From NCBI GenBank assembly GCA_046497275.1, contig JAWOFX010000166.1:1-25914 (forward strand): 25,914 nucleotides of DNA, given 5' to 3'. Every line of letters starts with the position of its first letter. The first letter of the stretch is position 1. Source of the DNA: Promethearchaeia archaeon (GTDB lineage Archaea > Asgardarchaeota > Lokiarchaeia > Sigyniarchaeales > SOKP01). A program made the translations under genes and the position numbers. The notes below the pieces were generated by a model. That model saw only the letters and a program-made list of their open reading frames with translations, was not told where the DNA came from and searched no databases. Shown here piece after piece: positions 17,519 to 18,522 of this stretch.

Positions 17519-17849
17519 AATAATTAATTATTCTAATCTATTTCTTTTTTTAATTTATAAAAGGAAAAGGCCTTCATTTTTTTTCAATAAACCCAAATAA
17601 AATATGCTTATTATAATCTGTCTAAAAGTAGAAATATTTGAATCGAAAATATTCAAATTGCCTAATTAATAAACAAAATTTATAAGATTTAATGATCTCC
17701 TCTTTCTTTTTTTCCTTTATAAGAAAAATTATTACATATTTGATTTTAACAAAAAGTTAATAAGTTTTCTATCTTATCATATTAAAGGTAAATAGTAATA
17801 TATTAACCAAATAAAATATAAATATAATTTATGGAAAAAGTTATAAAAT

Positions 17850-18146
17850 ATGAGTAAAGAGACAGGTTTTGTTAAATGGTATGATTCTCGCAAAGAATAG
17901 GGGAATTTCCTCTATTTGTGAATGGGATACGGATTTATCAAAGCCAAAGATGGGAGAGATATATTTGTACATTACTCCGCGATAGAGGGAGAGGATGATG
18001 AATATAAATCTCTAAATGAAAACGACAAAGTGGAATTTGAGATTGTTAAAGGAGAAAAAGGCCCAATGGCCAAGAAAGTTGAAGTCATAGAAGCAGCAGA
18101 TAATAGTAAAAGTTTGTATAGTAGTGGAAAGGGATTTCGGATATAA
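17850..18146 (+). CDS. csp: Cold-shock domain protein (CspA family), split by a 30-nt intron; spliced product 88 aa (join 17850-17893, 17924-18146)
   Basis: Exon 1 encodes [15 protein letters not shown] and exon 2 encodes [22 protein letters not shown]...[23 protein letters not shown] (RNP1 and RNP2 motifs). The ORF track shows only the downstream part (17922). Confidence 0.9.
17894..17923 (+). other. Putative bulge-helix-bulge (BHB) mRNA intron, 30 nt
   Basis: Central 4-bp helix UCGC(17888-91)/GUGA(17918-21); 3-nt bulges AAA(17892-94) and AUG(17922-24); 10-bp inner stem 17895-904/17908-917; 4-bp outer stem 17884-87/17925-28. It contains in-frame TAG and TGA. Confidence 0.85.
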
Positions 18147-18194
18147 TAATAATTAATCTCAGTTTAATAAAAATTAGTTAGCACGATGAAATGG

Positions 18195-18216
18195 TTTTTT
18201 ATATTCTTATTTTTTT
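18195..18216 (+). terminator. Possible archaeal oligo-T terminator after csp
   Basis: Two T-tracts (6-7 T) about 50-70 nt after the csp stop codon. Confidence 0.3.
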
Positions 18217-18327
18217 CTTAATTTAATAAATAAATAGAATTTAGATCATATTTTAAAGTATGAGCTTTTTATTTGCAAAAATAACATTTATTTTAAACAA
18301 GACTAATATAAAAAGGAAATTCTAACA

Positions 18328-18522
18328 ATGGTAGGAGAAAAAGATAAAGATACTAAAAATGACAAGGCAAAAAAAGTTGCTGAAGTAATGGTAGCAAATA
18401 TGAAGGCGAATATGGAAGACCCCGACTTTTTATTAAAAAAAGAGCGAAGAATGCAAGAGGCAGCAAATAAAGTACTCAAGAAGAGAAAAGAAAGAGAAGA
18501 AACAAATAAAGAAAAGCAGTAA
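18328..18522 (+). CDS. Small, highly charged hypothetical protein (64 aa, probably helical)
   Basis: ATG preceded by AAGGA; purine-rich K/E codon pattern like neighbouring genes; no family recognised. Confidence 0.65.
   Translation: MVGEKDKDTKNDKAKKVAEVMVANMKANMEDPDFLLKKERRMQEAANKVLKKRKEREETNKEKQ

Follow-up and report, generated by a model that had tools for sequence, protein, structure and literature searches.

The window analysed here, 25,914 nucleotides of contig JAWOFX010000166.1 from a Promethearchaeia archaeon, contains a cold-shock protein gene (csp) with an interrupted reading frame. The frame from the start codon ATG at 17850 (plus strand, as are all window features below) meets TAG at 17898 and TGA at 17919, and the cold-shock domain is picked up again at GYGFI. 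The question raised by this locus is whether the gene is broken or split. It is very probably split, by an archaeal bulge-helix-bulge (BHB) intron of 30 nt that interrupts the Lys codon at the head of the RNP1 motif (K/GYGFI) and is removed from the mRNA.

Exon 1 (17850-17893) is composed of the ATG, 14 codons, and the AA of the Lys codon. The intron, with both in-frame stops, occupies 17894-17923, and exon 2 (17924-18146) begins with the final base of the Lys codon and continues from RNP1 to the stop codon TAA at 18144-18146. When 17894-17923 was deleted in silico, an ORF of 267 nt coding for a protein of 88 aa was obtained. This protein matches positions 2-65 of the 66 positions of the Pfam CSD profile (PF00313; E 2e-25, 88.9 bits) and carries the RNP1 (KGYGFI) and RNP2 (VFVHY) motifs, and the proposal of the first-pass annotation that excision restores a cold-shock-domain protein of 88 aa is thus confirmed over nearly the whole profile. 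The peptide across the splice junction (DSRK-GYGF) is WYDSRKGYGFIK. An AUG at 17922-17924 is the start of another ORF of 74 aa (17922-18146), which covers profile positions 13-65 only and is still above the Pfam CSD threshold. Automatic annotation would call a truncated csp from this AUG, masking the intron.

The bases at both ends of the insert form a strict hBHBh' motif. The outer helix h is formed by AUUC (17884-17887) and GGAU (17925-17928), with all four pairs present (A-U, U-A, U-G, and C-G). The central 4-bp helix H joins the exon sequence UCGC (17888-17891) to the intron sequence GUGA (17918-17921) by U-A, C-G, G-U, and C-G pairs. The 5' bulge is AAA (17892-17894), and the 3' bulge is AUG (17922-17924), the same AUG that opens the 74-aa ORF. 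The intron hairpin h' (17895-17917) has a 10-bp stem, 17895-17904 with 17908-17917, including two G-U pairs, and a 3-nt loop AUU (17905-17907). All bases, pairs, and stops listed in the first-pass annotation were found in the sequence. In archaeal pre-tRNAs, the corresponding layout is h-H-B-h' or h'-H-B-h, where h is the anticodon stem and H is formed by positions 32-35 and the intron, and splicing cuts fall after the second base of the bulge. In the window, this rule sets the cuts at 17893/17894 and 17923/17924.

The BHB-constrained fold has -16.1 kcal/mol versus -16.4 kcal/mol for the unconstrained minimum, a difference of 0.3 kcal/mol, and the 66-nt segment around the intron has a folding z of -2.4 versus shuffles. 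The exact 3-nt bulges do not appear in every unconstrained minimum-energy fold; that of the 66-nt segment of the window is one without them. A strict scan for hairpin-type BHB motifs gave 7,122 motifs on both strands of the 3.85-Mb genome with 32 allowed lengths, which corresponds to a chance of about 3e-5 per fixed position and length. In csp, the position and length of the motif are exactly those needed to restore the CSD frame, and the same is seen in five further genes. No Rfam family was found in 17600-18400 at E up to 1. A self-splicing group I or group II intron was rejected, as the insert has 30 nt versus a ribozyme core of hundreds of nt and the Rfam search was empty.

Seven CSD matches and five intact CSD genes were found in the genome (3.85 Mb, 98.9% complete). 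Two intron-less csp paralogues, L001 (G000:C3) and L003 (G000:C100), have a common leader GGTTTTAAA(A/T)TTG about 20 nt upstream of the start. The leader ends in a TTG start and reads 'VLKL' in translations of many Promethearchaeota, and a role in translation initiation or regulation is possible.

Inserts of 29-31 nt were identified at the same codon in five more csp genes. Of these genes, one is in the same genome, three belong to congeners, and the last belongs to another genus. The second interrupted csp of the same genome (G000:C121:8511-8547, minus strand, locus L059) has a frame-shifting insert of 29 nt with central helix CCGC/GCGG and bulges AAC and AAA. In the eight RNA runs, 0.50-0.65 of the sampled CDS words of this gene were present, versus up to 1.00 in DNA runs, a difference that does not count as evidence for splicing of this gene. 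The congeners have inserts of 30 nt (G004:C7), 29 nt (G002:C25), and 31 nt (G001:C5). In the other genus (G122:C79:71881-71941, locus L151), the insert is 29 nt long and its central helix, CUAG/CUAG, is palindromic. This last intron sits between copies of a 13-nt direct repeat, GACTCTAGAAAAG, which could be a trace of intron insertion. The survey covered about 150 csp matches listed in 41 related genomes; 45 loci were checked, and all except G004:C7, G002:C25, and G001:C5 have the uninterrupted 24-nt spacing. A site-specific pattern search of all 135 genomes of the family and of 400 genomes of the phylum added G122:C79 alone, and an insert at this site was found in 0 of 265 Asgard genomes outside the family. 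Several hits of the pattern were discarded. L141, L143-L146, and L154 were false matches (L141 and L146 by translation, the rest by the matched sequence), and in L142 and L153, both csp genes with no intron, the pattern caught an upstream TGGTTT.

The central helix is retained in all five homologues, and both bulges and the inner hairpin are retained as well. Among the six genes, five different central helices are present: UCGC/GUGA, CCGC/GCGG, UCGU/GCGA (twice), CCAG/CUGG, and CUAG/CUAG. Pairing is kept in 24 of 24 cells, and each position varies on both sides, so that the five homologues carry compensatory variants of the helix of the window. The pairs were counted directly, since in the MAFFT alignments A1 and A2 the G001 and G122 sequences are shifted by one column relative to the structure. 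Every gene has an inner hairpin of 5-10 bp, formed by differing stem sequences. The outer helix is full only in the window copy, with 1-3 of four pairs in the other five genes and 1-2 in four of them. Covariation of the stems in orthologues, which the first-pass annotation had proposed as a check, is thus present in the central helix. Its description of the motif as canonical applies to the window copy; most of the other five have a weak outer helix and are of the relaxed HBh' type.

Cutting after the second base of each bulge gives W-[FY]-x-x-R-K-G-[YF]-G-F in 6/6 genes. Two of these genes, G001 and G122, use AGA for Arg and have the whole motif displaced by 1 nt upstream; the intron phase is 1 instead of 2, and the frame is restored all the same. 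Such a shift would be difficult to account for if the splice sites were not set by the structure.

Part of the csp locus is represented in twelve metatranscriptome runs, which come from three salt-lake studies. One RNA contig per study (X3, X9, and X13) was compared with the window, together with DNA contig X2 from an independent sediment metagenome. The RNA contigs X3 (632 nt), X9 (290 nt), and X13 (376 nt) match over 603, 320, and 386 nt of the window, respectively, on both exons, reaching 17893 in exon 1. Each of them is without exactly 30 nt at 17894 and is otherwise identical to the window, the untranslated flanks included. RNA depth is 0 in bin 17897-17923, and DNA contig X2 has a depth of 67.4 across the intron bins. 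X2 (623 nt) is continuous through the intron, with two SNPs elsewhere. The junction CGCAA/GGGA is unambiguous, because a slide of the deletion by one base in either direction alters the joined sequence. The share of sampled words in X3 (0.66) is about that expected for a spliced contig over 17798-18400. No unspliced csp RNA is among X3, X9, and X13; these are assembled contigs, not raw reads, and contigs drop minor forms. An unspliced csp RNA would be the precursor, and the spliced form its product. The first-pass annotation had derived the removal of exactly 17894-17923 from the BHB cut rule and, independently, from homology, and had asked for reads over the junction. The RNA contigs of all three studies have the predicted junction, and the DNA contig has no gap there.

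The same contigs would also be obtained if the salt lakes hold an intron-less csp allele that is transcribed, while the copy in the window is never spliced. Contig X2, the intron-bearing DNA, comes from samples other than those of the salt-lake RNA, congeners have intron-less orthologues, and a run guessed to be hypersaline-lake DNA holds 0.61 of the C121 words, the same as the RNA runs. Such a DNA polymorphism is nevertheless very unlikely. The RNA contigs agree with the window at every base other than the missing piece, whereas the independent X2 has two differences and retains the intron. The missing piece ends precisely at a BHB cut site on either side, and a motif kept by compensatory change in six genes would be unexplained if it were never used. 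Moreover, a precise intron-less allele would most simply come from spliced RNA.

The contigs also bear on the ends of the csp transcript. X3 begins at 17798, and X13 begins at 17799, immediately preceded by a loose end of Illumina adaptor, while DNA contig X2 extends upstream to 17638, past both starts. These positions (17798-17799) hint at a candidate transcript start about 51 nt before the ATG, and hence a 5' UTR of about 51 nt, in so far as contigs, which cannot prove a start, can do so. X9 and X13 stop at 18173 and 18184, respectively, the depth of X9 falling from 48.7 to 7.5, and X3 continues beyond. This gives a weak hint of an approximate 3' end of the main transcript at 18173-18184, ahead of a T-rich tract.

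Decay of the interrupted csp genes into pseudogenes, the hairpin being the remnant of a mobile element or of a duplication, is most improbable. With five intact CSD genes, the loss of one or two would be tolerable, and the direct repeat at the G122 insert would suit a remnant. On the other hand, the reading frames on both sides of the insert are intact, the CSD motifs are conserved, and other lesions are absent in all six genes. The csp gene is transcribed, and its RNA is without the insert; the central helix covaries; and the insert has no second copy in the genome.

Retention of the insert in the mRNA and its omission in translation, either by bypass of the T4 gene 60 type or by stop read-through combined with a frameshift, is scarcely credible. 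As in gene 60, an in-frame stop is present two codons past the take-off site and a stable hairpin lies in the gap, but the RNA contigs do not contain the insert. The inserts vary in sequence and in length (29, 30, and 31 nt), so that a separate hop would have to be fitted to each, a conserved matching pair of take-off and landing codons is not present, and inserts of 29 and 31 nt change the frame, so read-through could not rescue those genes. An artefact of assembly or binning, with the 30 nt as a chimeric join or the contig as contamination, is suggested by no more than the state of the genome, a MAG of 188 contigs with 98.9% completeness and 4.4% estimated contamination, and its probability is practically negligible: the independent metagenome assembled the same insert in the 623-nt X2, the same kind of insert is present in other genomes, and the close csp relatives all belong to Promethearchaeota/Promethearchaeia MAGs, in agreement with the Asgard host suggested in the first-pass annotation.

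Under the split-gene reading, the intron has a patchy distribution. According to the C-terminal tails and a maximum-likelihood tree, the six intron-bearing genes fall in four supported clades, and all four include intron-less orthologues. In clade A, the intron is present in three of six genes, and G002_C91 is without it though its protein is nearly identical to that of G000_C121. In clade B, only the window gene carries it, and it is absent from G001_C17 and G006_C12. G002_C25 in clade C and G122_C79 in clade D are the only intron-bearing members. Where an orthologue is without the intron, the boundaries of the missing stretch are exact and fall on the cut sites.

Identity among the introns of C20, C121, and G004 is 61-77%, versus about 50% between unrelated introns of the genome, which would fit common descent or transfer between paralogues. 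The identity of the G001 and G122 introns is at the background level. The csp introns are single-copy and have no ORF inside, and no homing endonuclease gene was found beside csp in the window. A dispersed repeat as the source of the intron was rejected, the window insert having no other copy in the genome; a 16-nt perfect match on C75 lies in an open frame with no BHB and was taken as a chance match. Judged from sequence comparison, the pattern would require gain at a single site several times or precise loss many times. On the split-gene reading, csp paralogues in a single Promethearchaeia family have a small set of related mini-introns at this site, often gained and lost, and the intron in the window is one of them.

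The genome also has at least three other protein-coding genes with BHB inserts of 30-31 nt. These are the gene for TFS, with an insert of 30 nt in the Zn ribbon (G000:C130:8739-8775, plus strand), a UbiA/DGGGP-synthase-like prenyltransferase with an insert of 30 nt in the NDxxD motif (G000:C111:36425-36461, minus strand), and a family-3 glycosyltransferase (Glycos_transf_3) with an insert of 31 nt (G000:C171:12130-12166, plus strand). In all three, the spliced junction gives one contiguous Pfam alignment. A further candidate, C156:56216 (31 nt), was rejected, having no Pfam support. The genome-wide search for BHB motifs in apparently broken genes, suggested in the first-pass annotation, had a mixed outcome. 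With an ORF-fusion filter, the strict scan produced flat histograms of length and did not exceed the shifted-cut controls across the genome, and a scan limited to csp-like features gave a modest excess over such controls (11 versus 3-6, and 6 versus 2). The three Pfam-backed genes were recovered in these scans. The csp intron probably belongs to a wider class of BHB introns of about 30 nt in protein-coding genes of this genome.

The genome encodes candidates for the enzymes needed. EndA is present in two paralogues, an alpha-like protein of 201 aa encoded at C46:30392, with the catalytic alpha subunit of A. pernix (Aeropyrum; 3P1Z_B) as the best PDB match (E 3e-38), and a divergent protein of 200 aa, encoded at C168:8310, which appears to be without the catalytic His. 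RtcB is present in two copies, one of them on C100. An RtcB gene and an Archease gene adjoin at G000:C145:7959-9723 on opposite strands and are convergent, with their 3' ends about 40 nt apart. [quoted passage not shown] Kaneta et al. (PMC5829648) report such an enzyme for Asgard archaea, and Yoshinari 2006, as cited in PMC5829648, linked heteromeric EndA to pre-mRNA splicing. ARAGORN recognised 19 tRNA genes only, nine of them with introns, in this genome of 98.9% completeness; most tRNA genes are probably too interrupted for recognition, which agrees with the reports of heavily interrupted tRNA genes in Asgard archaea (PMC11291895; bioRxiv 10.64898/2026.10.13.758758).

EndA and RtcB, with Archease, presumably act on csp as follows. 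In the pre-mRNA, exon bases 17884-17891 would pair with intron bases 17918-17921 and exon bases 17925-17928, which would put one 3-nt bulge on each strand, with 4 bp between them, above the 10-bp intron hairpin. A heteromeric (alpha-beta)2 EndA would cut after the second base of each bulge, and RtcB with Archease would join the exons. The product would be the mRNA for the complete 88-aa cold-shock-domain protein, the step that is seen at the RNA level. From unspliced csp RNA, only a peptide of 16 aa or a fragment of 74 aa without beta-strand 1 would be made.

In the searchable literature, spliced BHB introns of coding sequences are known from crenarchaeal cbf5 only (2002-2009), and no BHB intron was found described there for csp or for any mRNA of Asgard archaea, subscription-only papers being outside this search; the first-pass annotation, which knew of none, was in line with this. 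The cbf5 gene (pseudouridine synthase) has a BHB intron in its pre-mRNA in Crenarchaeota (Watanabe 2002; Yoshinari 2006; Yokobori 2009, PMC2738675). As in cbf5, the csp intron is an EndA-type BHB inside a coding sequence, in a lineage with heteromeric (alpha-beta)2 EndA; it is gained and lost among close relatives, and its splicing is seen in RNA. Unlike cbf5, csp is an unrelated gene family in another phylum (Asgard/Promethearchaeota), its intron is not a member of the cbf5 intron family and occupies one site repeatedly, in four paralogue clades, and the evidence consists of metatranscriptome contigs and not of RT-PCR or in vitro cleavage. With the BHB introns of archaeal tRNA genes (PMC11291895; bioRxiv 10.64898/2026.10.13.758758; Marck & Grosjean 2003), the csp intron has in common the geometry, the cut rule, the presumed enzymes, and the small size. 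It differs in that the substrate is an mRNA and the exon side of the motif consists of codons, versus the anticodon arm in tRNA genes, so that coding and pairing constrain each other. In Haloferax volcanii, a BHB intron is present in a 5' UTR (Schwarz et al. 2020, PMC7714728). That case likewise has an mRNA as substrate of the splicing endonuclease, as presumed here, but it concerns an untranslated leader, whereas in csp the coding sequence is interrupted and the protein is impossible without splicing.

The splicing of HAC1/XBP1 relies on the nuclease IRE1, twin stem-loops with 7-nt loops, and tRNA ligase or RtcB, and it is a regulated stress switch. The parallel drawn to it in the first-pass annotation is an analogy only, in which the use of a protein endonuclease and the type of ligase would be shared. 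Both systems would be independent of the spliceosome, with a protein endonuclease acting at two structured sites and a tRNA-type ligase (presumed enzymes in csp), and in both a small intron alters the reading frame or the product. The structure in csp is a BHB and not a pair of 7-nt loops, and the nuclease would be EndA/TSEN versus IRE1. The IRE1 RNase domain (PF06479) had no match in the genome and none in any control genome either, so the search had no positive control.

With RNA-level support, csp is a second gene family, unrelated to cbf5, for splicing of the tRNA-endonuclease type in a coding sequence. Compared with cbf5, the gene, the phylum, and the recurrence in several paralogues are new, and the mechanism is that of the cbf5 intron. 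This rare mode of mRNA splicing is thereby extended to the Asgard archaea, the closest archaeal relatives or source lineage of eukaryotes. Since the intron comes and goes among orthologues within a genus and recurs in paralogues, recent gain and loss of introns in archaeal protein genes can be observed directly. Gene callers report such genes as truncated or as pseudogenes, and the Asgard proteomes used in studies of eukaryogenesis are therefore probably mis-annotated at these loci.

The csp gene codes for an RNA chaperone, and its message must fold in order to be spliced, which makes it a candidate for feedback control. Cold-shock proteins melt RNA structure and EndA needs a folded BHB, so high levels of the protein or a higher temperature would lower the splicing of csp; regulation of csp splicing by temperature or by the protein is a putative, attractive idea. 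If true, autoregulation of csp would be a post-transcriptional switch similar to that of HAC1/XBP1. It is a doubtful possibility that EndA-dependent introns of about 30 nt form a large set in the coding genes of Promethearchaeia which is turning over, and that csp splicing is a control point. If so, introns would be gained repeatedly at the same site without a homing endonuclease, for example, by reverse splicing or paralogue conversion, and splicing of mRNA would be part of ordinary gene expression in these close relatives of eukaryotes.
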